Source: a virus
Lineage: Duplodnaviria; Caudoviricetes
Direction: 5' to 3' (one strand)
IMG/VR virus record: IMGVR_UViG_3300011338_000749
Span: 1 to 59,895 of that record
DNA length: 59,895 nt
The notes beneath the pieces are model-generated. The model was given only the letters and a program-made list of their open reading frames with translations. It had not been told where the DNA came from and did not search any database. Positions 21,144 to 44,084 of this stretch are shown in pieces (the first letter of the stretch is position 1; each line of letters opens with the position of its first letter). The position numbers and the translations under genes were made by a program.

Positions 21144-22058
21144 TTACGCCGCGCCAGGAGAACCGTAGATACCACGTGGGTCAGACCAACCAAAGCTGTA
21201 ACGCTCACGGGCCTTGTAGCGCACGTTGCCGGTGTCAAAATCGCCTTCAAAAGCGGTCTTGATAGGCGAACGGTTGAACATCTTCAGGCCGTTAGGCGCG
21301 TCGGTGATCAGGAACCATGCGTCCACGTCGGTCAGGTAGTGGTTGACAGCGTAACCTTCGGGAATCAGGCCCATGGACTTGATTGCGTTGATATCGTTGT
21401 CAGCCGTGCTGGTGCGCAAAGTGCTTTTCATCAGGCGCTCTGCAGTGAACTGCAGTTCCTTAGGAACAATCATCTTGCGTGCCGTCAAAGCAACCTTCAA
21501 GCCACGTTCGTCAGTGAACGCCGCAATGTCGATGATGCCTTGCTCGAGAGAAGTCTCGTTCAAGTCAGCACCTACAGTGGGGCGGTTGGCGAAGTTAGGG
21601 CCCAAAGCGGTTGGGTGCGCAGTAGACATCAGGGCCACACCGTCGCCACCAGCGTACTGGCCGCCGGTGAAACCATTGTTCAACACGGAGGCAGCTTTTA
21701 CCTGCTTGGTGTTGGCCATGGAGCGAGCCAAAGCCTTGGTGTAGCGAGCAGACAGACGGTCGTAGAGGTTGTCCTCAACGGCTTCTTCAGTCAGCGCAAA
21801 CGCCATAGCGATGGTTTCGTGGGTGTAGCGAGCAGTGAATGATTCCAAAGCTGTGTCGTATGCCAAGCCAGCGCCCTCGGTTTTCACCGGAGCAGAGCCG
21901 AAGCCAGTCAACATAACTTCTTCTTCAAACGCGCGATCAGATGTCTCGGTAGAGAAAATCTCTTCGTGCTCGTTTTCGTAGCGCTTGTATTCAATACCAA
22001 ACAAGGCGTTCAAGCCTGGCTCGAGCTCTTTAACAAGTTGTGAACGGGTAATGGCCAT
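21144..22058 (-). CDS. Major capsid protein (Mu gpT-like)
   Basis: MAITRSQLVKELEPGLNALFG...EGDFDTGNVRYKARERYSFGWSDPRGIYGS; downstream of scaffold, followed by a terminator. Confidence 0.9.
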   Translation of the reverse strand: MAITRSQLVKELEPGLNALFGIEYKRYENEHEEIFSTETSDRAFEEEVMLTGFGSAPVKTEGAGLAYDTALESFTARYTHETIAMAFALTEEAVEDNLYDRLSARYTKALARSMANTKQVKAASVLNNGFTGGQYAGGDGVALMSTAHPTALGPNFANRPTVGADLNETSLEQGIIDIAAFTDERGLKVALTARKMIVPKELQFTAERLMKSTLRTSTADNDINAIKSMGLIPEGYAVNHYLTDVDAWFLITDAPNGLKMFNRSPIKTAFEGDFDTGNVRYKARERYSFGWSDPRGIYGSPGAA

Positions 22059-22060
22059 GA

Positions 22061-22648
22061 TTATGCTCCGTCAGATGCAACACCGACGCTGCCGTACTGA
22101 TGTTGATTGAGTTTGACAACGACCACTGAATAAGTACCCAACTCATTGTCGGGAGACTGATAGAGGCCAACGATTTTGAAGGTCAGTGCAGCGGTTTTGG
22201 CAATAGATGCCGAATCCAACGAGCCGTTGGAAATACCGTTGACTGTGCTACCCGTGGTAGAGGCTGTTGGATCAGCGTTCTTGCCAATATTGGCTTGAGT
22301 CACTGCAGCGCCAGCTTGCACCAGGAACAGTTGGGCGGGATCGTCCAACACTTCGCAGTCAATGACACCAGAGGTGACAGTGATGCTGCCTGGGTAGTAA
22401 TTTTTCCAAGTCGGCTTGTTGGCACGAGTTGGATCGTTGTACTGCACACCGTTGAACACGCCCGTGGGGGCAGCGTGCGTAGCAGCGTCGTACTTGATGA
22501 TGTAGCCGTCATAAATAACGACGAGATCGCCTTGGTAAATGGCTGTGGCATACGAGTTAGCAATCTGATAGCCGTATTGCTTTTGAGCACCGGTAGCAGA
22601 AAGGTTACCCGAAGGACGCAGACCAAAAGGCTTATTGATGTTTGCCAT
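22061..22648 (-). CDS. Capsid cement/minor capsid protein
   Basis: PFGLRP...IYQGDLV...GVFNG..DDP; directly upstream of MCP. Confidence 0.65.
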   Translation of the reverse strand: MANINKPFGLRPSGNLSATGAQKQYGYQIANSYATAIYQGDLVVIYDGYIIKYDAATHAAPTGVFNGVQYNDPTRANKPTWKNYYPGSITVTSGVIDCEVLDDPAQLFLVQAGAAVTQANIGKNADPTASTTGSTVNGISNGSLDSASIAKTAALTFKIVGLYQSPDNELGTYSVVVVKLNQHQYGSVGVASDGA

Positions 22649-22680: not shown

Positions 22681-23154
22681 TTACGGTTGACGGAATGTTG
22701 TGCGCGAACTCCGGTCGGGTGACTGGATTTTCATTGAAGAGTGGGCGTTTTCACGCATCATCTCGTTGTCTACAGCACTCAACTGTTCCTGTGCCCTTTT
22801 GCGGAAATACGCGTTACGCTCTTCAACCGTCTCATCGGGGATCTTGGCAAGCAAGAGTCCACCAACAGAGATCACGCCAGCATGTTTGCCGTCGTCCATC
22901 GTGGGCAAAGTTGCGCGGTATTCCTCAGGAATATTTTCGGGACGAACAAGTTCGTATCCCTCGCGCAGTTTGCTGTACACGTTCTGGTTGTCAAGGGTGC
23001 CGTTGATCTCGGAACGAATCCAACGGTACTTAAATCCTTCGGGGGCAGGTGGTGCATCCAAGCGCGAAGGTGGACGCCATGGCTTGCGACGAGATTCTTT
23101 GTCCCGGCTTTCGGCGGAACGGGGGGCTCGGTCGATAGTAATTTTTTCGCTCAT
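22681..23154 (-). CDS. Conserved head-morphogenesis protein
   Basis: W.PPS.LDAP..P.GFKYRWIR...KLREGYELVR...GGLLLAKIP...RNAYF. Confidence 0.7.
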   Translation of the reverse strand: MSEKITIDRAPRSAESRDKESRRKPWRPPSRLDAPPAPEGFKYRWIRSEINGTLDNQNVYSKLREGYELVRPENIPEEYRATLPTMDDGKHAGVISVGGLLLAKIPDETVEERNAYFRKRAQEQLSAVDNEMMRENAHSSMKIQSPDRSSRTTFRQP

Positions 23155-23157
23155 GAC

Positions 23158-24084
23158 TTACTCCTTTACGTACTTGGCATACTCTTCGAGAGGTACACCC
23201 AGTTTCTTTGCAATAGCAACCTGACTCGGTGATAGCCGGACAGTTCGGCGCGCACTATTTATTCCGGAACTCCGGGATGCAGGGGCAACAGCAGGCGCGG
23301 AACGCTGTTGTCTGGAAGATTGGCTGGACGATTGCTCGCCCGCAAACCTCTTCGGGAATTCATCCCTAAGACGTCGATCCAATTCAGTATAGTACTCAGT
23401 CGATTGCGGGTCAACACCCTCTTTTTCGATGAGTTCTTGGTGGATGCCCCAAGCAGCGTAGGTCAGCACGCGATCTTGGCCAAACCAAGAGTTACGGGCT
23501 GCCCAGTCTTCGGCTTGAGGATCGGGCTGCGCGCGCTGCTGTTGCTGCGGAGCTTGATATTGCTGCTGCGGTGCAGGATTGCGCACAGCGTGTTCTTGTT
23601 GCTGCAACCAGCCTGAAACTTGGCCCTTTTCTTGGAGCAAAGTGCTCAGGCGTTCTTGCGCTTCCATCTCGGTGTCAAGGTCCCCTTCTTCACGCGCTTT
23701 GTGAATGATCTGGCGCAACTGAACTTGCTGCGTATCCAAGCGAGACTTGGCTTCGTTCAAGCGGCTGTAGTCAGTGTGTACCAGTTTCTGTTGAAGCTCT
23801 TGGGTCTGGTTCTGCAGGCCCTTGGCGTACTCCACAGCAGCCTGCTCGCGGCGCTCGGCCTCGCGCATCTTGGCGGTCAGCTTAGCAATGCGCTTTTGCA
23901 CTGCTTCGTTGACCGAGCCCAACTCATCAGAGTGAGTAGCGCTCCCTTTTTGCTCAGGGCGCTCAGGCTGTATCTTGCCTTCTTCTTGGTTACCGTCAGC
24001 GTCGTTGTCAAACGTCACCGTAGCGGCGTTTTCGTCTTCTCCAAGATTAAATTCTAATTGTTCGTTGTCCATTACAGTTGCCAT
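23158..24084 (-). CDS. Capsid scaffolding protein
   Basis: Acidic N-terminus, long coiled coil, C-terminal LSPSQVAIAKKLGVPLEEYAK; lies between portal and MCP. Confidence 0.75.
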   Translation of the reverse strand: MATVMDNEQLEFNLGEDENAATVTFDNDADGNQEEGKIQPERPEQKGSATHSDELGSVNEAVQKRIAKLTAKMREAERREQAAVEYAKGLQNQTQELQQKLVHTDYSRLNEAKSRLDTQQVQLRQIIHKAREEGDLDTEMEAQERLSTLLQEKGQVSGWLQQQEHAVRNPAPQQQYQAPQQQQRAQPDPQAEDWAARNSWFGQDRVLTYAAWGIHQELIEKEGVDPQSTEYYTELDRRLRDEFPKRFAGEQSSSQSSRQQRSAPAVAPASRSSGINSARRTVRLSPSQVAIAKKLGVPLEEYAKYVKE

Positions 24085-24092
24085 AGTTTGCC

Positions 24093-24545
24093 TTATAGGT
24101 GAACAATATCTTCAGGATTCTGGATTAGCGCCAGGACTTCGTCATCATTAATGATTCGGATTTCTCCTTCGTCAATCGGCAAGCGCGCGCCTGCATACCG
24201 ACCAAAGACAATCCAGTCACCTTTCTTGCACCACGGTCCGGTCGGGAATTTGTTCTCGTCGGCGTAGGCAAGTGGGCCAACAGACAGCACATAGCCGCAG
24301 ACCGTTGCCGACTGCTCGCGCTGCCGGGTTTGATCTGACAAGACAATGCCACCTTTGGTTTTTTCTGCCCCTCGGTAGGGCAGGATGACGATTCGCCAGC
24401 CCGTGGGGGCGGGAATTCGATCCATTACCTTTTGTTCGATCTTGTCAACATTGAGGCTGCCCTCTTTGTCGTAAGCATCGTCCAAGACAGGTACGTGAGC
24501 AGCAGCATCGTCTGCCCACTTCTTCTCCAGCGCAGTCATTTCCAT
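24093..24545 (-). CDS. groES: Phage GroES-like co-chaperonin
   Basis: PTGWRIVI...KTKGGIVL...G.VLSVGP..GD.IVFGRYAG...IINDDEVLA. Confidence 0.85.
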   Translation of the reverse strand: MEMTALEKKWADDAAAHVPVLDDAYDKEGSLNVDKIEQKVMDRIPAPTGWRIVILPYRGAEKTKGGIVLSDQTRQREQSATVCGYVLSVGPLAYADENKFPTGPWCKKGDWIVFGRYAGARLPIDEGEIRIINDDEVLALIQNPEDIVHL

Positions 24546-30058: not shown

Positions 30059-30087
30059 ATTTTAGACTGGGTATCAGTAATACTCAA
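30059..30087 (-). promoter_or_regulatory. Putative promoter for 27288..30029
   Basis: TTGAGT-N17-TAAAAT. Confidence 0.35.
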
Positions 30088-31546
30088 CCTCTGCTTGTTC
30101 ATCCGATCCACTGTCTTCCTGATCATCAGAATCCAGAGCAATAAAGTTGCCCTGACGAAATCTTTGCAGAGCCATGGTTGTCACGTCCACTTGGTCATCG
30201 TTGCTGCCGTTGGGGAAAGCAGCGCACTCTTCGACAAGCTCCTCACAGCATTCCATTCCCTCAGGATACCAGACCATGCCCGATTCCAACAGAGGGGCTA
30301 CGGCATTCGCGCGGCTGAGCTTGTCCTGATTCTGCCTGCGGCCACCGGGCGAGAACATCGTGACGGGGATTCCGATCCGGCGGAGTTCCTGCTGGAGTGG
30401 CGTGCCGGTGGCCTTGGCCTCGATCAAGACATTGTCAGGCTTCCAATACTGGTACTCGTCTTTCGCGATCCGCTTGAGCTCAGGAAAATCCCAACGGCCC
30501 TTGCGCACGTTGAGCAAGATGAGGTTGGGGCCCGAGTCAACATCAGGGGTAAACACGCCCCACGTTGCGATGACCGAAAAGTCAGCCGTTTCCTTTTTGC
30601 TGTAGGCCGTGTCCATGGTCTGCAAAAGGTACTCACACTGCGGCGGTTCTGGGTTGGTCCACTTGCGCCACCATGTGCGTTTTAAAACAGCACCTTCATC
30701 GTTCGTGGGTTGTTGCTGCCACTGCGCGTTCCACTTCTTCAGACCAATGGAAACCTTCACCTTCTCCAGTTCGTCGATGGGCCAGTACTCCGGCCAGAGT
30801 GGATTACCGCTTGGGAGAATAGCTGGGAATTCCAAGACCTCCCACTGGTCAGACTTAAGATAGCCCTGCTGTTTCAGCAGGCGGCCAGAGAGGTCATCGG
30901 TCTTCCAACGGGTGTTGATCACAATGATCGCGCCGCCTGGTTGCAATCGCTGGCGAGGGCCAGAGGTGTACCACTCCCACGTGTTCTCCATAGCCGTATC
31001 AGACAAGGCGTCCTGCTCGTCCAAGACGTCGTCCAGCACCACAATATTACCGCCACGCCCGGTCATTGCGCCGCCTTTACCAATGAAAAAGGCTTCACCG
31101 CCTTGGGCCGTGTTCCACCTGCCTGCGGCCTTAGAGTCAATGGACAGGGTCATACCTGGGAAGAGATCCTTGTATCTCTCTTCATTTACAAGATTACGAA
31201 TCATGCGCCCGAAGCGCTGAGCGAGGTCCGAGGTGTGCGAGCCAATGACAATCTTAGAGTCAGGCTTTTTACCCATCATGTAGGCAGGGAACAGATAGCT
31301 GCCCATCTGGGATTTACCATGACGGGGAGGCATCGCGATCATCAGACGCTTGCACTCGCCACTCACTACGCGGTCCAAGGCTTTAGCGATGATCCTGTGG
31401 TGTTCCCCAACGAGCATCTCGGGCCAGACGTATCGACAGAAGTCAAGAAAGCCCGTGGTTGCCTTTTCGTGCGCATCGAGTAATTGCAGACGGAGCTGCA
31501 ACCGCATCATTTCTTCTTCGGCGTCTTTTGGAGGTGGGGTGTGCAT
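30074..31546 (-). CDS. terL: Terminase large subunit
   Basis: MPPRHGKS Walker A, VVLDD Walker B, TRW..DDL.G, DTAYS...D.S, IEAKATG, FPNG.NDDQVD nuclease motif. Confidence 0.95.
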   Translation of the reverse strand: MHTPPPKDAEEEMMRLQLRLQLLDAHEKATTGFLDFCRYVWPEMLVGEHHRIIAKALDRVVSGECKRLMIAMPPRHGKSQMGSYLFPAYMMGKKPDSKIVIGSHTSDLAQRFGRMIRNLVNEERYKDLFPGMTLSIDSKAAGRWNTAQGGEAFFIGKGGAMTGRGGNIVVLDDVLDEQDALSDTAMENTWEWYTSGPRQRLQPGGAIIVINTRWKTDDLSGRLLKQQGYLKSDQWEVLEFPAILPSGNPLWPEYWPIDELEKVKVSIGLKKWNAQWQQQPTNDEGAVLKRTWWRKWTNPEPPQCEYLLQTMDTAYSKKETADFSVIATWGVFTPDVDSGPNLILLNVRKGRWDFPELKRIAKDEYQYWKPDNVLIEAKATGTPLQQELRRIGIPVTMFSPGGRRQNQDKLSRANAVAPLLESGMVWYPEGMECCEELVEECAAFPNGSNDDQVDVTTMALQRFRQGNFIALDSDDQEDSGSDEQAEVEYY

Positions 31547-36349: not shown

Positions 36350-36420
36350 TTGCCATCCAAACACAGTACGACTTATAATCTTTTCACACATCCCGTGTAA
36401 CTCAAGAAAGGATAGAGCAA
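36350..36420 (+). promoter_or_regulatory. Early rightward promoter and leader
   Basis: TTGCCA-N18-TATAAT; ACAC/GTGT hairpin; GAAAGGATAGAG before ATG 36421. Confidence 0.7.
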
Positions 36421-36657
36421 ATGACTGTAAATAATGAGAACATCCACGATCTGATCCACGACTCGGCAGGCCATGCCACCGAGCTCCTGACCCACATGTC
36501 TTCCTTGACCGAGGACCCCGTAACAGCAGTCATTTCCCTGATGCTGGCCACCGCCGTCTTTGCCCGGTCCATGGACCTGCCCCTTGACGTCCTCCTAGGT
36601 GGCATAGAAGCCGCCTCCACTTCAATCCAGGAGGCTACCCACCATGCAGCCCACTAA
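36421..36657 (+). CDS. Early hypothetical protein
   Basis: First gene after the promoter, with SD. Confidence 0.7.
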   Translation: MTVNNENIHDLIHDSAGHATELLTHMSSLTEDPVTAVISLMLATAVFARSMDLPLDVLLGGIEAASTSIQEATHHAAH

Positions 36658-36868
36658 ACGCCTTGTAGGCCCCTCTGATGGCCCCAACCACTATCCTGTC
36701 CCGCCGTACGACACGGGCAAGGTCAAGATTGGCCTGTACTACACCCGGCCCTCCAACTGGTCCGCGAGCCGCGATTCATTGCTCTTGCAATCCGCCCTCC
36801 TGTCCACCCCCGCGAACCGTCCCTCTTTACTCGACCGCCTGATCACCTTTTTCCGGAGCCTTGCATGA
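36644..36868 (+). CDS. Early hypothetical protein
   Basis: AGGAGG SD; PYDTGKVKIGLYY motif. Confidence 0.7.
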   Translation: MQPTKRLVGPSDGPNHYPVPPYDTGKVKIGLYYTRPSNWSASRDSLLLQSALLSTPANRPSLLDRLITFFRSLA

Positions 36869-37158
36869 CCCCCATGACTAATCATTCCAAGGAAGGCCTG
36901 TTGGCCTTTGACTACGACTGCGACGAGCTCAACAGCACTTTGACCTGCTGGTTTGAGTACGAAGCCGCGGAGCGCGGTTCTCGGGAACCTTTGACCGGCT
37001 TGCAACTCGAGCCTGACTATCCGTCCACCTTGACGCTGCACCACGTCTACCTGCCCGGCTCCAACGTCGACATCGCTCCCCTGCTGTCCTTTGAGGTGGT
37101 GGCGGAGATTGAAACGTGGGTCGCGGACCAATTTGCTGGCCACTCGGAGGACTATTGA
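36865..37158 (+). CDS. Early hypothetical protein
   Basis: ATGA coupling; L.CWFEYE.AE.GS.E..TG...EPDYP. Confidence 0.7.
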   Translation: MTPMTNHSKEGLLAFDYDCDELNSTLTCWFEYEAAERGSREPLTGLQLEPDYPSTLTLHHVYLPGSNVDIAPLLSFEVVAEIETWVADQFAGHSEDY

Positions 37159-37159
37159 C

Positions 37160-37351
37160 ATGCTCAAAGACGAAATAAATCAAGTTTCGCGCAAATTTTT
37201 GCGCGAAACCTTCTTGGCAAGCTCACAAACCTACTGTTACTGCGGCGACGAGCAGACCAGCATTGGTTGCTGTAGCGAAAACCATTTTCAAACCTTTGCC
37301 GAAATGGACAAGCGCACGCAAGAAGAGTTTTTGGATGGGGAAATGCCGTGA
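37160..37351 (+). CDS. Small Cys-containing protein
   Basis: GGAGG SD then ATG 37160; YCYCGD....GCCSENHF. Confidence 0.65.
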   Translation: MLKDEINQVSRKFLRETFLASSQTYCYCGDEQTSIGCCSENHFQTFAEMDKRTQEEFLDGEMP

Positions 37352-37461
37352 TCTTAGACCTCCTCACCCTGTTCCTTATCCTGTCCGGCGCGCTGGCATG
37401 GTTTTTATTTTTCTGCTTTTATCTTTATATCTGGCTGACACAGTTAAGGGGGAAGAAATGA
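37348..37461 (+). CDS. 37-aa membrane peptide
   Basis: GTGA/ATGA coupled on both sides; MILDLLTLFLILSGALAWFLFFCFYLYIWLTQLRGKK. Confidence 0.55.
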   Translation: MILDLLTLFLILSGALAWFLFFCFYLYIWLTQLRGKK

Positions 37462-37745
37462 AACCAACACCCGGCCCTTGGAGGGCAGTAGGCGGCGCGA
37501 TTCGTCCTGAAAGCGCGAAAGGCTATACAGGCGGTTACGCGCCAATACTTGCAGCGCACCACGACAAGAGACTACCCGACAACCGCGAGGCAAATGCAAA
37601 GCTGGCTGCTGCTGCACCTGAACTACTTGAAGCCTTGCAGTGGTTGATGCGGCAAGTACCCGAGCCGAGCCTACCCGGAGACTACACAACGGGGTATCTG
37701 GCTGCGAAGGCAGCGATACACAAAGCTACTGGGAGTTTTAAATGA
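37458..37745 (+). CDS. Phage hypothetical protein (TPGPW...ANA.L.AAAPELLEAL family)
   Basis: Characteristic motifs; start ATG 37458. Confidence 0.75.
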   Translation: MKPTPGPWRAVGGAIRPESAKGYTGGYAPILAAHHDKRLPDNREANAKLAAAAPELLEALQWLMRQVPEPSLPGDYTTGYLAAKAAIHKATGSFK

Positions 37746-37984
37746 ACAGAGAAGACATTATTAAACTGATTGAAGACAATGGGTTGACTTTGCATGGAGA
37801 CATTGAGCATTTCGCCGCCCTCGTCGCCGAGCATGTTTACACCAAATATTTAGAACCACCTGCTCCAAGATTGACAGGTACGTTTTCAATCACTGCGGCG
37901 GGAAAGTTTAAATGTACAGGTTGCACAGGTACATGGGCAGACCGTGAAGATGCCAAACACCATTCATGTAAGGAATACCAATGA
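37742..37984 (+). CDS. Early hypothetical protein with CxxC/HxxC
   Basis: MNREDII...HFAALVA; ATGA coupling. Confidence 0.65.
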   Translation: MNREDIIKLIEDNGLTLHGDIEHFAALVAEHVYTKYLEPPAPRLTGTFSITAAGKFKCTGCTGTWADREDAKHHSCKEYQ

Positions 37985-38238
37985 CATATACAGAAGACCT
38001 GATTTTTAGACTGCGCGACACCGCCAGCCGGGGCGTATCAAGCTGGGGCGATTTGCAGCAAGAGGCTGCTGATGAGCTTGAAACGCTGATGAAGGCTGTA
38101 GCCGCAGAGCGCGAGGCGTGTGCGAAGCTGTGTGATGAATACGCGAACGGGCTAAAGCGCAACTTTTCCGAGATCATCGCTGACGCTATCCGAGCAAAGG
38201 GACAAGCCAGCCACCCAAGGGGGGAAATGAATGAGTGA
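37981..38238 (+). CDS. Early hypothetical protein
   Basis: EAADELE; AEREACAKLCD...AIRA motif. Confidence 0.7.
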   Translation: MTYTEDLIFRLRDTASRGVSSWGDLQQEAADELETLMKAVAAEREACAKLCDEYANGLKRNFSEIIADAIRAKGQASHPRGEMNE

Positions 38239-38422
38239 AGGACACCCAAAATTAACAGTGATCCCCTCATCTAACCAAAAAGCAATGGGGCAAGACCTGA
38301 TGGATAAATTGCGCGAAGTTATCAACGCGCCCGAGTATAACCACATGGCTACTGCAACCGTAATTGGCGTTTTAGAAATGACAAAACTGCATTATTGGCA
38401 ATGTAATTTAACAGAGGATTGA
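38231..38422 (+). CDS. Early hypothetical protein
   Basis: Coupled small ORF; ATVIGVLEMTK. Confidence 0.6.
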   Translation: MSEGHPKLTVIPSSNQKAMGQDLMDKLREVINAPEYNHMATATVIGVLEMTKLHYWQCNLTED

Positions 38423-38423
38423 T

Positions 38424-38744
38424 ATGACAAAAGAAACAGCAGCATTGAAGTTGGCGCTTGAGGCGTTAAAAGAAGCCCAAACAAATGGCGATGGGATGGA
38501 AAAGTGGGATAGAAATAAAAAAGCCATCACCGCCATCAAAGAAGCCTTGGCACAGCCAGAGCAGACACCATACATAACCACACCGACATCAACTCCGATG
38601 TGGACTATCCCACCACAGCGCAAGCCGCTGACGGATGAGGAGATTATTTTGATTGTGGCTGATTGCGCATCTTCTCATCAGCACACGGACATTCACTTTG
38701 CCCGAGCCATCGAAGCCGCACACGGCATTAAGGGGTTAATATGA
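38424..38744 (+). CDS. Early hypothetical protein
   Basis: LKLALEAL...AITAIKEALAQ...PLTDEEI...FARAIEAAHGI. Confidence 0.7.
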   Translation: MTKETAALKLALEALKEAQTNGDGMEKWDRNKKAITAIKEALAQPEQTPYITTPTSTPMWTIPPQRKPLTDEEIILIVADCASSHQHTDIHFARAIEAAHGIKGLI

Positions 38745-38962
38745 AATTGGAGGCACAACACTCAAGCGCTATCAACAAGACAATCAGACCAAAGGGTATG
38801 GACATAACCAAGATTCCAGCCGACACCAGAAAGTTTGTCGAGGCCGAGGCGCTTTCAATTTTTACAACCATGACTAACGCTGGCGCTTCATTGCAACAAA
38901 CACTGTTGGCAGTTTACTTGTCTGGCATGAGCGCCGCACACGGCATTAAGGGGGAGGCATGA
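38741..38962 (+). CDS. Early hypothetical protein
   Basis: ATGA coupling; ends AAHGIKG like the upstream gene. Confidence 0.6.
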   Translation: MKLEAQHSSAINKTIRPKGMDITKIPADTRKFVEAEALSIFTTMTNAGASLQQTLLAVYLSGMSAAHGIKGEA

Positions 38963-39186
38963 CAGACAAAGAAGTTGAAGACATCATCAGGTCAAACATG
39001 AATCTGCAAATGAACCTTGCTGGCATCCGAGCAGACTTTGAAGAAAAGTTACAGCGCACATGGGTTGGGCTGACGGATGAGGAAGCACAGCAGACGTTTG
39101 CAAAGCACAACTGCACTATCTCAGCTGACCTTGCGGGGATATTAGCCCGTGCTATTGAAGCCAAACTCAAGGAGAAGAACGCATGA
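38959..39186 (+). CDS. Early hypothetical protein
   Basis: RTWVGLTDEE...ARAIEAKLKEKN motif. Confidence 0.7.
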   Translation: MTDKEVEDIIRSNMNLQMNLAGIRADFEEKLQRTWVGLTDEEAQQTFAKHNCTISADLAGILARAIEAKLKEKNA

Positions 39187-39344
39187 CTAAATTTGGAGAC
39201 GCACCGATAAAAAGGGAGGGCGACACCGTTGACCCTGATGAATGTACATGGGAGTGCGACTGCGAGAAATGCCAAGCCAAGTACAACCAGTGGAAAGAGG
39301 CTTTTGATGCCCAACAGAAACAATACGAGGAGAAGAACACATGA
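39183..39344 (+). CDS. 53-aa CxCxxC protein
   Basis: Manual translation MTKFGDAPIKREG...ECDCEKCQAKYNQWK; ATGA coupled at both ends. Confidence 0.6.
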   Translation: MTKFGDAPIKREGDTVDPDECTWECDCEKCQAKYNQWKEAFDAQQKQYEEKNT

Positions 39345-39538
39345 AAACAACCATGCGGTGGAAAGAGTGGGGCGAGAACCACTGGGTGCTGATCACCAGA
39401 GAAGGGGAAGTGGTCGACGAGATCAAACGCGACAGCCAGTTCTTCTTTGTCTTGAAAAGCACCAGTAAGAGGTTTGTTGATATCAACAAGGCTAAGCAGT
39501 CTAGAAAAACAGGAGTAGATGATGGAAAACGGGATTAA
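39341..39538 (+). CDS. Early hypothetical protein
   Basis: AGGAG SD; coupled. Confidence 0.6.
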   Translation: MKTTMRWKEWGENHWVLITREGEVVDEIKRDSQFFFVLKSTSKRFVDINKAKQSRKTGVDDGKRD

Positions 39539-39782
39539 GAAGATTCGCCTTGAGATGGGCATGACCCAGCAAGCGTTTGCGGACATGTTGTCTTGCTCCC
39601 AAGGCAACGTGGGCCACTACGAGTTGCGCGATCAAATGGTCCCGCCGGAGGTGGCGAGGAAGCTTATTGCTGAAGCCGCGAAGCGCGGTTCGCGCATCAC
39701 CTACGAGGACATCTACGGCGCGGTAGCGGAACCCCTTATCCTGCCCGGTGCGCTGTCCCCTGTCTTCCTAAAACCTCTGTAA
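39519..39782 (+). CDS. Cro-like HTH transcriptional regulator
   Basis: IKKIRLEMGMTQQAFADMLSCSQGNVGHYE XRE-family HTH. Confidence 0.85.
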   Translation: MMENGIKKIRLEMGMTQQAFADMLSCSQGNVGHYELRDQMVPPEVARKLIAEAAKRGSRITYEDIYGAVAEPLILPGALSPVFLKPL

Positions 39783-39790
39783 GGACTGCT

Positions 39791-40207
39791 ATGAAAAATA
39801 TAGAGCACGATGTGCACGTCATCATCGCTGAGCTGGGTGCCCAGGCCCACGCAGTGATGACACCAATCTCTCTGAACGATCTGCGCATGGAGCGCAATGA
39901 ATACTTGGCCAACACCGCCTCTGATCTCTACGACCGGGTGGTGTACATGGTGCGGTCCGAGAAGCTGGAAAAAAATATCCCTGTGGACGAAGACGGCTAT
40001 GGGCCGGTGGTTGAAATTGAACTGCGCATGAACATTTTCAGTGTGTCCTCCTCCTTCTGGTTTGAAACGCGGCGCGAGCGGCAGGACAGGTTAAAAGTGG
40101 TCATCAACGAGTTGTTCTTGCTGGTCATGGACATGCAAAAGAACTACGACGATGTGGTCCGTGAAGAGGAAGAAGAAGAAAGGCAAGCCAATGCGAAAAA
40201 GGAGTAA
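39791..40207 (+). CDS. Hypothetical protein
   Basis: AAGGA SD; 138-aa ORF. Confidence 0.65.
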   Translation: MKNIEHDVHVIIAELGAQAHAVMTPISLNDLRMERNEYLANTASDLYDRVVYMVRSEKLEKNIPVDEDGYGPVVEIELRMNIFSVSSSFWFETRRERQDRLKVVINELFLLVMDMQKNYDDVVREEEEEERQANAKKE

Positions 40208-40694
40208 GTACCGGCCCAAGGGCTTGATCTATGACACCATGAACTACATCAAAAGCGGCATGAAGGTGGTGGGTGAGATCAGCGCTGGGACCACACTCAA
40301 GATCAAGAACCACGAGGCGCTCAAGCAGGTGTGCACGGGCCTCGGCACGCTACATGATATTGACACCCTGATCTGCGCATTCAACATCACCGAAGTCTTG
40401 TCGATGATGCGCATTGGGGATGATTGGAAGGACGAGATTCGGGCCGCGCAAGACGCGCTACTGGCGGTGGGACGCCGTGGCGCGGAGACTGGCAAGTTTA
40501 TTTTGCGCGGACCCGAACTCACCTCTTTCAATCTTGCCATGGAAATTCATGATGCACAGTTAGATGCCTGTACTGTAGCTGAATTGGAAAAAGCTATGGA
40601 TATTGTCATAGCGATAGTTAAAAACAAAAAAGCACGAGCGATTGTGCACCCAGTCCCCCGTCCAATTTTGGACATTGAAAACGCAGTTTTATAA
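40191..40694 (+). CDS. Conserved phage hypothetical protein
   Basis: Start ATG 40191 (MRKRSKYRPK); HDAQLDACTVAELEKA. Confidence 0.7.
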   Translation: MRKRSKYRPKGLIYDTMNYIKSGMKVVGEISAGTTLKIKNHEALKQVCTGLGTLHDIDTLICAFNITEVLSMMRIGDDWKDEIRAAQDALLAVGRRGAETGKFILRGPELTSFNLAMEIHDAQLDACTVAELEKAMDIVIAIVKNKKARAIVHPVPRPILDIENAVL

Positions 40695-40704
40695 GGAGAA
40701 CCCC

Positions 40705-41331
40705 ATGGCCAAGCCATTTGCATCGAGAACCCTGAAAGTAATGGAATATTTTCGTAAGAACCCTGACGCTGTTGTTTCGGCAGTGGCGGGGAAATTCAAC
40801 ATGGCAATTTCGACCGCCTACCAGCTACGTGCAAAGGTGCGCAAAGAAGAACCTGCCGCAGAGCCCGAGGCGCGCAAGAGGATTATTCTCGATCCTAAAC
40901 AAGAAAAGATTGCCCGGGCACTTGGTGTGCCCTTGGAAGAATACGTCAAAAAGGGGCTAGAGCTAGGCGCGCTGAAGTACGAAGGTGAAAAAGTTGTATT
41001 AAATACGGAGTGGCGGCTGCCAGAGTCACTCTGGAAATCACCGGAAGACAATCCTATCACAAATGTAGATGCGATCCTCGATTCGCGGGCCAAGGATTAC
41101 GGTAAGTTCATCGATGGTGCAGAGGTCATGCAGATGCTCAAGCGCATCGTGCACACCTACATTGAAATGCGGGACACGCAACTGGCTTTCGACCAGCGCG
41201 AAGCTTTGGACATGATCATCCACAAGATTGGCCGCATCATCAATGGCAATCCTGATAAGGCAGACCACTGGTTCGACGTTGCGGGTTACGCCACTTTGGT
41301 GGCTGAGCGCTTAGAGGGCAATGCGCGGTGA
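40705..41331 (+). CDS. HTH + scaffold-like motif + DUF6378-like (nucleotide pyrophosphohydrolase-like) protein
   Basis: AAGGAG SD; ILDSRAKDYG.F...EALDMI.HKIGRIINGNP..DHW.DVAGYA.LV C-terminal domain. Confidence 0.75.
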   Translation: MAKPFASRTLKVMEYFRKNPDAVVSAVAGKFNMAISTAYQLRAKVRKEEPAAEPEARKRIILDPKQEKIARALGVPLEEYVKKGLELGALKYEGEKVVLNTEWRLPESLWKSPEDNPITNVDAILDSRAKDYGKFIDGAEVMQMLKRIVHTYIEMRDTQLAFDQREALDMIIHKIGRIINGNPDKADHWFDVAGYATLVAERLEGNAR

Positions 41332-41618
41332 ACGCAACCCGCATCAAGCCAGAAGAAGCGCGGGCCAAGGTCCTCGCTGCTCTGCGCGCGCATGATTACA
41401 AAGGCAGCACCACGGATCTGGCCCGGTGGACGCTGCTGCCGGTATCTGTTGTCCGGCGCGCGGGCTTGTACTTGGCGTCGAACTTAAAACTGGACGCGAC
41501 GCGGGTCTCTGGCACGGGCAAGGGGGAGTACCTCTTCACCGTGCGCCAGCTTGATTTGTTTGAAGACCACAAGGCTCCGGCCACGCTGTGGCAGAAGATT
41601 AAGAGCGGGTTTAGATAA
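41328..41618 (+). CDS. Hypothetical protein, possible winged-HTH
   Basis: GTGA coupling; last gene before the terminator. Confidence 0.6.
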   Translation: MNATRIKPEEARAKVLAALRAHDYKGSTTDLARWTLLPVSVVRRAGLYLASNLKLDATRVSGTGKGEYLFTVRQLDLFEDHKAPATLWQKIKSGFR

Positions 41619-41641
41619 AAGGGCCCCGAGGGGCCCTTTTT
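41617..41641. terminator. Bidirectional terminator
   Basis: AAAAGGGCCCC-GA-GGGGCCCTTTTT between convergent genes. Confidence 0.85.
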
Positions 41642-42143
41642 ATTTGATATGCAGGCTCTGCTTTGCTTGCAGATATGCGGCGTGGGCCGCTTCAGGAGAT
41701 CGAAACATGCCCAAGCGATGCCGCACCCCGTTGGCGCTTATTTCGGCAGCAAAGACTCCGGGGTATTTTGTGACACAGGCTCCGCGAAGACCGGTAGTAC
41801 TGTTGCGCTGGGGCTTCAAGTTGTTCTGTAGATTTTCGGCGTTTGAAACGTCTCGAAGATTGGAAATCCGATTGTCTGAGCGATTGCCATTAATGTGATC
41901 AATAAAACCTGTAGGCCATGTTCCGTAATAGTGAGCAAACGCCACCCTATGTGTTCGAAGCAGACACTTATCCAACATCAAAATTCGATAGCCCTGGCCA
42001 TCAGGGCTCCCCACTTCCTTGCCCACATGCGAACGATTAGACGTCCGAATTTGCCACGTCAATACGCCCGTTTCAGGGTCGTAATTAAACGCCTCTCGGA
42101 GACGATCAGGGGCAGGGATAGAATATGTTTTGCGGCGTTCCAT
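41640..42143 (-). mobile_element. Free-standing HNH-AP2 homing endonuclease
   Basis: YDPETG; HRVAF...IDHINGNRSDNRISNLR; LG.F..PEAAH.AY AP2-like C-terminus. Confidence 0.9.
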
Positions 42144-42206: not shown

Positions 42207-44084
42207 CTACTTCATAGAATCACCCCAAGAGGTTCCAATCTCAACATCACAACGAGTAGGCACCTCAAGGCGCGCAGCTTGCTCCATGATTCGCGCCCCC
42301 TCCTCTGCCTCTTCCCGCGTGTTTACGCTTAGTACGATCTCATCGTGCACTTGAAGCATGGGCTTTAGCCCTGCCTTCCATAGCCCCACCATGGCTGCTT
42401 TGGTTTGGTCTGCGGCAGACCCTTGGATCAGACGATTCAGGCCCTTATAGGTGCCTGCGCGCTTGATCTTGGAGCCGTATTCAATCACCGCCTGTTCACG
42501 TGGCAGCGCTTTATTCACGCCCCACTCCATTGGCTCCCATAACGGGAACCGGCACTTGCGTCCGAGCAGCGTGCGGATGGCCCCGCCAGCCGCCGGGTGG
42601 TCAATCCGTTTCATTACGGCACTGACGGTGCCCTTAAGAAACGGGACGTTCTGGTGAAAGCGCGTGATCAGCTCATCTGCCTCATGTAGGGACAGGTCCA
42701 AACTGGCGGCGAGCTTGTTCTTACCCATGCCGTACATCAGGCCCAAGCCAATTGTCTTGGCCGCTTTCCGTTTAATGCCCGCCATGTCCGCAACCAATTG
42801 ATGAAAATCAGTGTTCGGATCGTTGCGGTAGGCGTCGACCATGGTGTCGGCCCCGGGCAGGCCAAGAAGGCTTGCATAGTGGACCAGTAGACGTGGCTCC
42901 TGTGAGCTGAAGTCATTCGACGCCCATAGCTGCCCCTGCTCCGGCAGGAAAAGGCCACGCACCATAGGGCCAATGATCTCATGCCGGGCAGGAATCTGTT
43001 GAGCATTTGGGTTGTTCATGGACAAACGCCCGGTGACCGTGCCGCCGTCATCCGACCGCATCTGGTTGACGTGGGGGTGGATGCGTCCGGTCTTGGCACT
43101 AAAGTCCATGTATGGCTGCAAAAACGTGTTGTGCGTCTTGTTGGTCTCGCGCGCCTCGATAATCATCTTGGCCAGCGGGTGATCGTGGTTGTCCAAGAAC
43201 TGCTTGGTGAAGCTCGGTAGGCCGTTCTCGGTCTTGCTGTACTGAATGCCCAAGCGGTCGAAGGCGTGGGCAATGGACTGCGCGGCCCAGATGTCGATCT
43301 TGACACCTGCCTGCTCTTTCATTTCCTTGAGCAACTGGTGCTCACGGGTGCGCATGCGGTCAATCATCAGGCCGCATTTGTCTCTGTCAAAGCGGATGCC
43401 CCGGCGGGTCATCTCCAGCAGCACCGGAAACACATCGGTCTCGACGGCGAAGATGGATTCAACCTCATCTTGGCGCATCTTAATTTTGAAGTGCTGCCAA
43501 AGCTTGAGCGTCAGTGCCGCGTCTTGCTCGGCGTACTCACCAACGTACATCGCTGGGAGTTTCCAGAGCTCCTTTTTAGGATGGACACCGAAATCGGCTG
43601 CGGCCTGCTTGAGGCCCTGCTCACTCTTGACTTCCTTGAGGTAGTCGAAACCGAGGGCATTGAGGCTGAAGCTGAATCGGTTTTCATCGAGGAGCGGAGC
43701 GGCGAGCATGGTGTCGTAGATGCGCCCGTTGATGGTAAATCCACTTCCACCCAGCCACCCGGCATCGTACGCGGCGTTGTGCATGATCTTGTCGGCGGGG
43801 GTGGCGAGGACGTCTTTGACCCATCGCTCCACCAACCTCTTATCCAAGTTGCCGCCACCGGCGTGAGCAACAGGGTAATAACCAGACCAACCTTCCACGG
43901 CAACGGCATATCCGACAATGAAACCGTCACCCCGAGGCCAGCCAGGACCAAAAGACTCCAAGTTGGGATCGCATGTTTCGAGGTCAATTGCTATCTCCTT
44001 CGCTGTGGATAAATTGGGGAAAGTTTCCGGAGCAACCCACTCTGTGGGGGTCGGGAAAAGCGGCATTGTTCTCGTTGTTTTCAC
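42207..44084 (-). CDS. polA: Family A DNA polymerase with 3'-5' exonuclease
   Basis: IDLET, HNAAYD, YAEQD exo motifs; DFSSQEPR, RKAAKTIGLGLMYG, QGSAAD, QVHDE. Confidence 0.95.
   Translation of the reverse strand: MKTTRTMPLFPTPTEWVAPETFPNLSTAKEIAIDLETCDPNLESFGPGWPRGDGFIVGYAVAVEGWSGYYPVAHAGGGNLDKRLVERWVKDVLATPADKIMHNAAYDAGWLGGSGFTINGRIYDTMLAAPLLDENRFSFSLNALGFDYLKEVKSEQGLKQAAADFGVHPKKELWKLPAMYVGEYAEQDAALTLKLWQHFKIKMRQDEVESIFAVETDVFPVLLEMTRRGIRFDRDKCGLMIDRMRTREHQLLKEMKEQAGVKIDIWAAQSIAHAFDRLGIQYSKTENGLPSFTKQFLDNHDHPLAKMIIEARETNKTHNTFLQPYMDFSAKTGRIHPHVNQMRSDDGGTVTGRLSMNNPNAQQIPARHEIIGPMVRGLFLPEQGQLWASNDFSSQEPRLLVHYASLLGLPGADTMVDAYRNDPNTDFHQLVADMAGIKRKAAKTIGLGLMYGMGKNKLAASLDLSLHEADELITRFHQNVPFLKGTVSAVMKRIDHPAAGGAIRTLLGRKCRFPLWEPMEWGVNKALPREQAVIEYGSKIKRAGTYKGLNRLIQGSAADQTKAAMVGLWKAGLKPMLQVHDEIVLSVNTREEAEEGARIMEQAARLEVPTRCDVEIGTSWGDSMK

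Follow-up and report, generated by a model that had tools for sequence, protein, structure and literature searches.

A portable cassette derived from the tail of a putative scaffolding protein in the linker of an accessory early phage protein

Short, portable peptides that load proteins into a shell of the HK97 fold are known from encapsulins, as cargo-loading peptides, and from phage T4, as the capsid targeting sequence; these peptides are terminal, and their role is experimentally established. In phage P22, the scaffold's helix-turn-helix (HTH) domain is described as essential for coat binding (10.1101/2022.12.13.520362), and cargo fused to C-terminal fragments of this scaffold is reported to end up inside capsids (PMC9962691). 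A comparable element is described for the SaPI1 protein CpmB, which has the C-terminal helix-and-hook of the 80alpha scaffold and competes for the capsid protein (PMC5644958). Here we analyze a 59,895-base virus record (IMG/VR IMGVR_UViG_3300011338_000749, taken over its full length and called the window; estimated to be 96% complete) from an uncultured aquatic phage. Our firm result is that an accessory early protein of 208 amino acids (aa) carries in its linker a portable, optional cassette derived from the tail of a putative 308-aa scaffolding protein encoded by the same genome. Judged by sequence, the window is a podovirus-like genome, kin of DSL-LC04, 023Pt_psg01, and the Pelagibacter phages HTVC023P and HTVC027P.

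The cassette is like the encapsulin and T4 peptides in principle; unlike them, it is not terminal, and it is unrelated to them in sequence. What the window shares with P22 gp8 is, as a prediction, a short helix-turn-helix on a flexible tether that ends an elongated helical protein, and the cassette would be a natural version of the gp8 cargo fusions. However, no sequence or profile match to gp8 was detected, the hairpin of the cassette is internal and lies between two domains, and no scaffold with a solved structure was among the PDB matches of the 308-aa protein or of the motif profile. As in the CpmB/80alpha pair, a second protein bears the C-terminal docking element of a scaffold, and CpmB is described as using the same capsid site (PMC5644958). 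CpmB itself is a satellite-encoded small dimer whose helix-and-hook contains an RIIK motif and which redirects capsid size (PMC5644958), whereas the 208-aa protein lacks RIIK, has its copy inside a linker, belongs to the phage's own early block, and presents another sequence in a DNA-binding-like and DUF6378 context. The DUF6378 proteins of GenBank phages are free-standing or differently fused, without the N-terminal domain and the cassette of the 208-aa protein. The kind of arrangement is already known, as scaffold-tail mimicry or tagging, and the cassette would be a further variant of it. For a scaffold-tail copy in a phage's own nonstructural protein, the literature gave only the P22, P22-fusion, and CpmB precedents, from searches that were not aimed at such a copy.

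The elements on which the argument turns are the following:

40705..41331, plus strand: gene of the 208-aa accessory early protein, with an HTH-like domain, a disordered linker containing the cassette, and a DUF6378 domain (open reading frame and ribosome-binding site)
40867..41028, plus strand: 54-codon linker cassette, residues 55-108, missing from the closest relatives
40870..40950, plus strand: scaffold-tail-like part of the cassette, residues 56-82, a basic strand-like stretch followed by a helix-turn-helix (BLASTP, hhalign, predicted helices)
23158..24084, minus strand: 308-aa putative scaffolding protein, with the GroES-like gene on one side and the capsid protein gene on the other
23161..23253, minus strand: C-terminal motif of the putative scaffold, residues 278-308, the source-like copy (open reading frame, relatives, AlphaFold2)
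21144..22058, minus strand: major capsid protein, the proposed docking target (Pfam Phage_capsid_4, E 2.4e-13; Mu-like_gpT, E 6.3e-06)

Homology of the cassette and the scaffold tail

The original observation was that the C-terminal motif of a scaffold, placed at about 23175-23243, recurs inside the protein encoded at 40705, and both sites were recovered. The 308-aa open reading frame ends ...ARRTVRLSPSQVAIAKKLGVPLEEYAKYVKE, and its VRL...YAK stretch occupies 23173..23241 on the minus strand, 2 nucleotides (nt) away from the position first given. Residues 56-82 of the 208-aa protein (40870..40950) read ARKRIILDPKQEKIARALGVPLEEYVK; the start proposed for this copy, 40878, falls within codon 58. 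In a single two-protein BLASTP comparison, the scaffold tail and the cassette are identical at 16 of 27 residues (35.4 bits, E 4e-07), and a profile-profile comparison of 17 diverse cassettes with 10 scaffold tails by hhalign gave a probability of 98.5% (E 2.5e-15, 27 columns). Some relatives are nearer the tail than the window's protein is: P0012 has both PSQVAIA and GVPL in common with it. Within the window, a six-frame regular-expression scan found only these two motif sites, and a profile search of the whole record also found two.

The codons tell how old the copy is. For the octapeptide LGVPLEEY, the scaffold gene uses ctg ggt gta cct ctc gaa gag tat and the cassette uses ctt ggt gtg ccc ttg gaa gaa tac; of the eight codons, six differ and every change is synonymous, so that a codon-by-codon reading agrees with what had been noticed originally. 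The alignment of 27 codons has 44 identical bases out of 81, with 17.1 synonymous differences at 20.8 sites, which is saturation. Because synonymous sites are saturated, the cassette is no recent copy of the scaffold tail, and the same figures rule out a recent gene conversion from the scaffold gene. From these sequence comparisons we conclude that the cassette and the scaffold tail are homologous, not alike by chance, and that the cassette is an old paralogue of the tail's last ~30 residues.

Chance or convergence of two generic helix-turn-helix hairpins is a very improbable, already disfavored explanation of the match. The LG-x-(P/S)-x-E-E core does look like that of idealized hairpins: in the PDB, the motif profile matches de novo designed helical repeat proteins at ~8-10 bits per repeat, with designed dTor and TRP proteins at the top, plus weak HTH regulators and repressors, and it is because these matches are designed helical repeats that we ascribe to the core an idealized helix-cap-helix look. 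However, 8-10 bits per repeat compares with 35 bits between tail and cassette and with the profile E value given above, and the match reaches into a stretch, R-x-V-x-L-x-P-S-Q-V-A-I-A, that is not generic. The suspicion that the motif might be a generic HTH fragment is therefore justified for the LG-V-P-L-E-E core and unjustified for its flank.

The distribution of the motif also argues against convergence. Protein collections of 1.84 and 5.8 billion proteins were searched. Against the 1.84 billion representatives of the first, the profile of tail plus cassette matched 451 clusters at E <= 0.001, the best 150 of which comprise 92 scaffold homologues (assigned by their N-terminal part), 3 clusters of the DUF6378-protein family, 53 without a match to the N-terminal part, and 2 unrelated repeat proteins. 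Hence 148 of the best 150 fall into two contexts, 95 by their flanking domains and 53 without them; the latter, mostly short, tail-ending, and with a scaffold-like upstream context, are probably scaffold fragments. With a profile of the type A cassette and its extension (described below), we obtained 341 matches at E <= 0.01, and the best 120 are 119 proteins with PF19905 and 1 cut family member. No third protein class with the motif was seen in the best 150 of the 451 clusters or in the best 120 of the 341 cassette-profile matches; in a comparison of residues 53-95 with proteins of 365-2000 aa, which is weak evidence, none of 60 candidates reached E <= 10. As far as these lists reach, the motif is confined to two protein contexts, scaffold tails and the linkers of the 208-aa family. 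No cassette-bearing gene was found in GenBank phages: DUF6378 matches in 259 GenBank phage records span only query residues ~90-208, and none covers 80% of the query. DSL-LC04, HTVC023P, and 023Pt_psg01 have the scaffold tail and lack the 208-aa gene.

The donor-like protein is a putative scaffold by its gene position, downstream of an open reading frame at the portal's place and between the GroES-like and capsid genes, and by its predicted shape. Its AlphaFold2 model (mean predicted local distance difference test score [pLDDT] 72, 21 relatives) begins with a disordered stretch (residues 1-49), followed by two long helices predicted with very high confidence (50-168), a Q-rich segment that is disordered, a small domain of helices (189-254), and a disordered tether (255-285) that leads to a final helix-turn-helix (286-295 and 299-307). 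The label of scaffold, used from the beginning, fits this position and elongated helical shape, and we keep it as putative: no library names the protein. It has no match in Pfam or the PDB; its model has 8 matches in BFVD at E <= 0.001, all uncharacterized, while matches named "scaffolding protein" appear at E >= 0.36; and its relatives in GenBank are annotated "hypothetical" or "kinesin-like." The word "scaffold" does not occur in the main genomics paper on HTVC023P-type phages.

The tail of ~30 residues is nearly invariant across relatives whose scaffolds are otherwise 38-51% identical (L158, L159, and the cultured Pelagibacter phage HTVC023P). By regular expression the same tail is present in 74 of 80 IMG/VR loci, and 3 further loci have N for G; this 80-locus set is biased, as one scan pattern lay within the tail. 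Independently of that pattern, the tail is kept in HTVC023P gp37 and in 023Pt_psg01 at 38-42% overall identity. The major capsid protein, which has no match in the PDB, is 72-99% identical across 57 related loci. Because the tail is nearly invariant and the capsid protein so conserved, a fixed tail-capsid docking pair fits the data, and the tail is putatively a docking peptide kept constant throughout these phages. It offers a ready-made, testable docking peptide for this group.

An optional and variable cassette in a mosaic linker

In the closest IMG/VR relatives (L001 and L002) and in P0005, the protein runs from ...EPAAEP/EPVAEP straight into N-LWE... with no insert. The 208-aa protein family has 998 homologues at E <= 0.001 among 1487 candidates, and the mosaic linker makes its members vary in length between 145 and 232 aa. 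The cassette is present in 87 of 193 unique family sequences, a sample that leans to cassette-bearing members because the queries themselves carried the cassette. In type A cassettes the second helix is followed by a conserved G-L-x-x-G-x-L-K-Y-D-D-E, and in type B cassettes by M-R-K-x-D-P-T-A-F-E-E; IADKLGISHETF is an example of a divergent cassette type. Recurring linker pieces of other kinds, such as a proline-rich W-Q-P-P...P-V-P-E-V-S-R-P-I-V-N-P-E-I-T-M-E-P and P-T-P-G-P-T-P-E-H-E (e.g., in P0010, P0037, and P0056), are shuffled among close relatives, at times beside the scaffold-like cassette.

A tree was built from the two flanking domains of 115 of the 120 listed proteins (FastTree, 129 columns, many forks unresolved), the other five having been dropped for a cut N-terminus (four) or for not matching the parser (one). 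On this tree, 36 proteins have a type A cassette, 13 have type B, and 66 have none, and the cassette state changes 20 times, compared with a mean of 42 for shuffled labels (none of 200 shuffles was as low); at least 7 of the changes are forced by well-supported branches. The window's protein (P0001) belongs to a supported set (97) of six proteins, the other five of which have no cassette. In P0089, only ...PSQAAIAAAVLKYDE... is left, a cassette remnant with an internal deletion, which by its sequence is direct evidence of cassette decay or loss. The cassette is optional and mobile.

Where it is present, the cassette appears to be under constraint. Over 91 pairs of 14 unique cassettes, the proportion of synonymous differences (pS) is 0.60, which is saturated, and that of nonsynonymous differences (pN) is 0.35, a raw pN/pS of 0.58; in the DUF6378 domain of the same genes, pS is 0.49 and pN is 0.14. 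On these values the cassette is constrained, but less than the DUF6378 domain. Three of its positions, G31, G35, and Y39 (alignment A9), are invariant or nearly so; they are specific to the cassette and are not found in the scaffold.

The cassette peptides match no Pfam family, even at E values up to 10. Two candidate identities were tried and rejected. A ribbon-helix-helix cassette was represented by CcdA alone, in 2 of 30 family members at E 0.086, and by nothing on the peptides alone or among 51 PDB hits; a link to the tail of the Mu I/Z protease-scaffold was dropped, as Mu-like_Pro was matched in 1 of 30 members at E 0.032 and was not reproduced on the peptides.

Docking to the capsid and its alternatives

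We tentatively read the cassette as a scaffold-derived docking hairpin that tethers the early protein to assembling heads, a reading that may well prove wrong. It is plausible because of the precedents, namely the coat-binding HTH domain of P22, the cargo fusions to it, and the CpmB copy. The cassette would keep the tail's job, binding to the major capsid protein within a prohead under assembly; in this way proheads would tether the early protein and probably enclose it, and the flexible linker on either side would leave both folded domains free. By analogy, the tail may bind the capsid protein and the cassette may still do so. In the AlphaFold2 models, the helices of tail and cassette stand at aligned positions, and both lie beside low-confidence tethers: the predicted cassette helices, 64-73 and 77-87, are joined by a G-V-P turn and flanked by low-confidence stretches at 50-57 and ~88-118. 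The retention of the scaffold's octapeptide in the window despite six synonymous changes also speaks for docking.

The sole direct test of docking was a complex fold that paired cassette residues 52-95, with an alignment of 30 rows, and the capsid protein, with one of 21 rows. This check, which had been suggested for both peptides and was run with the cassette, returned a verdict of weak support, with a score of 0.45, where none of three controls exceeded 0.00; at least 98% of contacts recur between runs, the partner has a pLDDT of at least 72, and at this support level no interface is reported. Of 80 solved complexes, 58 reach the mark applied, as do 2 of 110 mismatched pairs, and it is reached at <= 0.60 by only 7 of the 80 solved complexes together with both passing mismatches.

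A number of findings weigh against docking. A score of 0.45 falls among those at which a pass errs in most cases, except for pairs that were already probable, and the scaffold role of the 308-aa protein is itself putative, being read from gene position and predicted shape. Known coat-docking tails are C-terminal, whereas the cassette is internal: its hairpin (residues 56-87) is followed by 120 residues, and the extreme C-terminal position holds for the 308-aa protein and not for the 208-aa protein. Fifteen long related records were scanned for the motif, and 14 could be classed for tail and cassette (the gene of G005 is cut by the contig end). Tail and cassette occur together in five of the 14 (the window, G006, G007, G008, and G017), three have a gene of the 208-aa family without the cassette (G003, G013, and G014), and in six the gene is missing (G001, G002, G004, DSL-LC04, HTVC023P, and 023Pt_psg01); the gene is accessory and the cassette optional. 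The co-variation of the two motifs that had been proposed as a check is not visible in the five genomes with both elements: the tail is identical in four of them and differs in G017 at three conservative positions, and among the cassettes there are both close and distant ones, that of G017 reading ...IAAKLGLSPQDFVKGG.... The octapeptide, fixed in the scaffold tail, has 37 variants in the cassettes, some of them charge-reversed (e.g., IADKLGISHETFIEHG), and LGVPLEEY itself occurs in only 2 of 87; the idea that synonymous change reflects selection on this peptide is therefore tenable for the window's lineage and fails for the family. Finally, the most conserved positions of the cassette are partly its own (G-L-x-x-G-x-L-K-Y-D-D-E) and are missing from the scaffold, which suggests a fold or partner of its own.

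These points bear on what else the cassette could be. It is possible, and nearly as likely as docking because the cassette is variable, internal, and equipped with its own conserved extension and because the complex score is weak, that it is an autonomous strand-helix-helix(-strand) mini-domain that makes no contact with the capsid and serves, for example, in self-association or as a second nucleic-acid contact beside the HTH-like domain, its likeness to the tail reflecting shared ancestry and a generic helix-cap-helix. The extension with G31, G35, and Y39 fits this, as do the free variation of the loop residues shared with the scaffold, the resemblance of the core to designed helical repeats and, weakly, to the GntR, 434, and lambda HTH proteins in the PDB, and weak Foldseek matches over at least 100 columns to the tandem-HTH protein CENP-B (1-129) and the double homeodomain of DUX4, all with E > 0.1. 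However, neither a Pfam family for the peptides alone nor a ribbon-helix-helix protein among the 51 PDB matches was found; a mini-domain leaves unexplained why it is exactly the scaffold tail, from the same group of phages, that looks like the donor, and why the scaffold octapeptide was retained through saturated synonymous change in the window's lineage, and the capsid-protein fold scored above all three controls. Another view takes the cassette as a neutral passenger in a linker that is a recombination playground, gaining and dropping short segments. Other pieces do come and go in this mosaic linker among close relatives, the cassette changes state about 20 times on the tree (at least 7 of these forced), and P0089 holds a decaying remnant. 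A passenger, however, would hardly have kept its reading frame, hydrophobic pattern, and several invariant residues across deep divergence, with pN below pS even though synonymous sites are saturated, nor would its presence be so much more clustered on the tree than shuffled labels are. We regard this explanation as quite improbable.

The same docking could also be put to another use. The cassette would then be a scaffold mimic by which the protein senses or regulates assembly, as an HTH regulator titrated by capsid protein, or disturbs co-infecting relatives. All the evidence for docking carries over; a regulator would suit both the HTH-like domain at the N-terminus and the place in an early operon, conservation of the tail and the capsid protein across relatives is high enough for a single mimic to fit many of them, and CpmB provides a described case of competition for the scaffold site (PMC5644958). 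Nothing, however, shows competition or regulation, a cassette-bearing phage would need to keep its own head assembly unharmed, constraint is expected of a protein that competes for a fixed site whereas the cassette is widely variable, and the C-terminal hook, dimerization domain, and satellite origin of CpmB are all absent. We consider a mimic unlikely. Equally doubtful is a specific elaboration of the docking hairpin as a natural cargo-loading tag, in which the hairpin copied into the early protein would have it sealed in proheads and delivered with the genome, giving it a head start before phage gene expression; as part of the same joint proposal, the patchy occurrence of the cassette would reflect lineages switching between a prepackaged and a newly made effector. 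Of the original interpretation, the homology of the two peptides and the age of the copy are upheld by hhalign and by the saturated synonymous sites; for a possible role as capsid tag or scaffold mimic, the one direct test is the weakly supportive complex fold.

If the cassette docks as a scaffold-derived hairpin, it would be a natural counterpart of the engineered P22 scaffold fusions and a phage-internal counterpart of the satellite mimicry by CpmB, and tailed phages could recruit nonstructural proteins to proheads by copying ~30 scaffold-tail residues into a linker. Docking would, in addition, open a way to learn what the widespread DUF6378 domain does and how heads assemble in the HTVC023P-like podoviruses, which are abundant in aquatic habitats and have no annotated scaffold. 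Without docking, what is left is a case of mosaic evolution in a linker.

The flanking domains and the genomic surroundings

The 208-aa protein starts at an ATG at 40705, with the ribosome-binding site AAGGAGA (40693..40699) 6 nt upstream, and was modeled by AlphaFold2 with a mean pLDDT of 71 (92 aligned relatives). On either side of the linker lies a predicted helical domain:

40723..40848, plus strand: N-terminal three-helix HTH-like domain, residues 7-48 (helices 7-18, 24-30, and 35-48; AlphaFold2)
41065..41313, plus strand: DUF6378 three-helix bundle, residues 121-203 (helices 121-156, 162-180, and 189-203; AlphaFold2)

The first of these had been called HTH-like, a description that its three predicted helices and Pfam matches below the cut-offs support weakly: of 30 family members, 16 match HTH_IclR, at best with E 9.1e-05, and 15 match HTH_23. 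In a Foldseek search of the PDB, the top matches of the 208-aa model were HTH regulators, none of them at E <= 0.001. The second label, DUF6378-like, proved correct, as PF19905 matches residues 123-201 above its cut-off (E 1.2e-06; 29.1 bits versus 27.1) and is matched in 30 of 30 aligned relatives.

The DUF6378 bundle is almost invariant in the family, over hundreds of relatives: nearly all of the 47 invariant columns in the 92-sequence alignment lie within it, and many are charged. Such near-invariance would suit an enzyme, or a protein that binds some conserved target tightly. Searches for leads on this domain in the PDB, Pfam clans, and the Atlas gave none that was significant, the Atlas offering DUF1599 leads with scores of 0.75-0.76, under the bar of 0.9; the publications found that name DUF6378 are descriptions of phage genomes and isolates, with none on the function of the domain. 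An acidic-motif pattern had pointed to an all-alpha nucleotide pyrophosphatase, a candidate that was dropped, as 30 members yielded no Pfam match of that kind at E <= 5.

The remaining features of the head genes, the early block, and its surroundings are as follows:

30074..31546, minus strand: large terminase, first in the listed head gene order
minus strand: 913-aa protein with an SLT domain, after the large terminase in the head order
minus strand: 802-aa open reading frame, at the same place as the annotated portal of DSL-LC04
24093..24545, minus strand: GroES-like co-chaperonin gene (Pfam Cpn10, E 7.6e-11), within the head module and directly upstream of the 308-aa gene
22681..23154, minus strand: 157-aa open reading frame, phrog_36003 (unknown function), between the scaffold and capsid genes
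22061..22648, minus strand: 195-aa open reading frame, phrog_37556 (unknown function), between the scaffold and capsid genes
36350..36379, plus strand: sigma-70-like promoter match (TTGCCA-18-TATAAT, 11/12 consensus), heading the plus-strand block
41617..41640, plus strand: intrinsic-terminator-like hairpin (10-pair stem with 6 G-C pairs, then a T run)
41640..42143, minus strand: gene for an HNH endonuclease (Pfam HNH_3, E 2.1e-16), with the early block ending on one side of it and DNA polymerase A encoded on the other
42207..44084: DNA polymerase A gene, beyond the HNH gene

GroES is described as one of 13 core genes of HTVC023P-type phages (PMC9599517). The 157-aa and 195-aa open reading frames are conserved, and either could be an assembly or decoration protein and the partner of the scaffold tail.

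The small genes of the plus-strand block span 36350..41640, with the 208-aa gene second-to-last, one gene before the terminator-like hairpin. The gene likely belongs to an early operon that runs from the promoter-like site to this hairpin, in line with its original description as early; the promoter-like site is a consensus match, and the region contains 2 such sites versus 5.1 expected from shuffles. The strand of the early block is opposite to that of the structural and replication genes; in DSL-LC04, which has no 208-aa gene, nearly all genes lie on one strand. The HNH endonuclease gene that follows the early block is possibly a mobile insertion.

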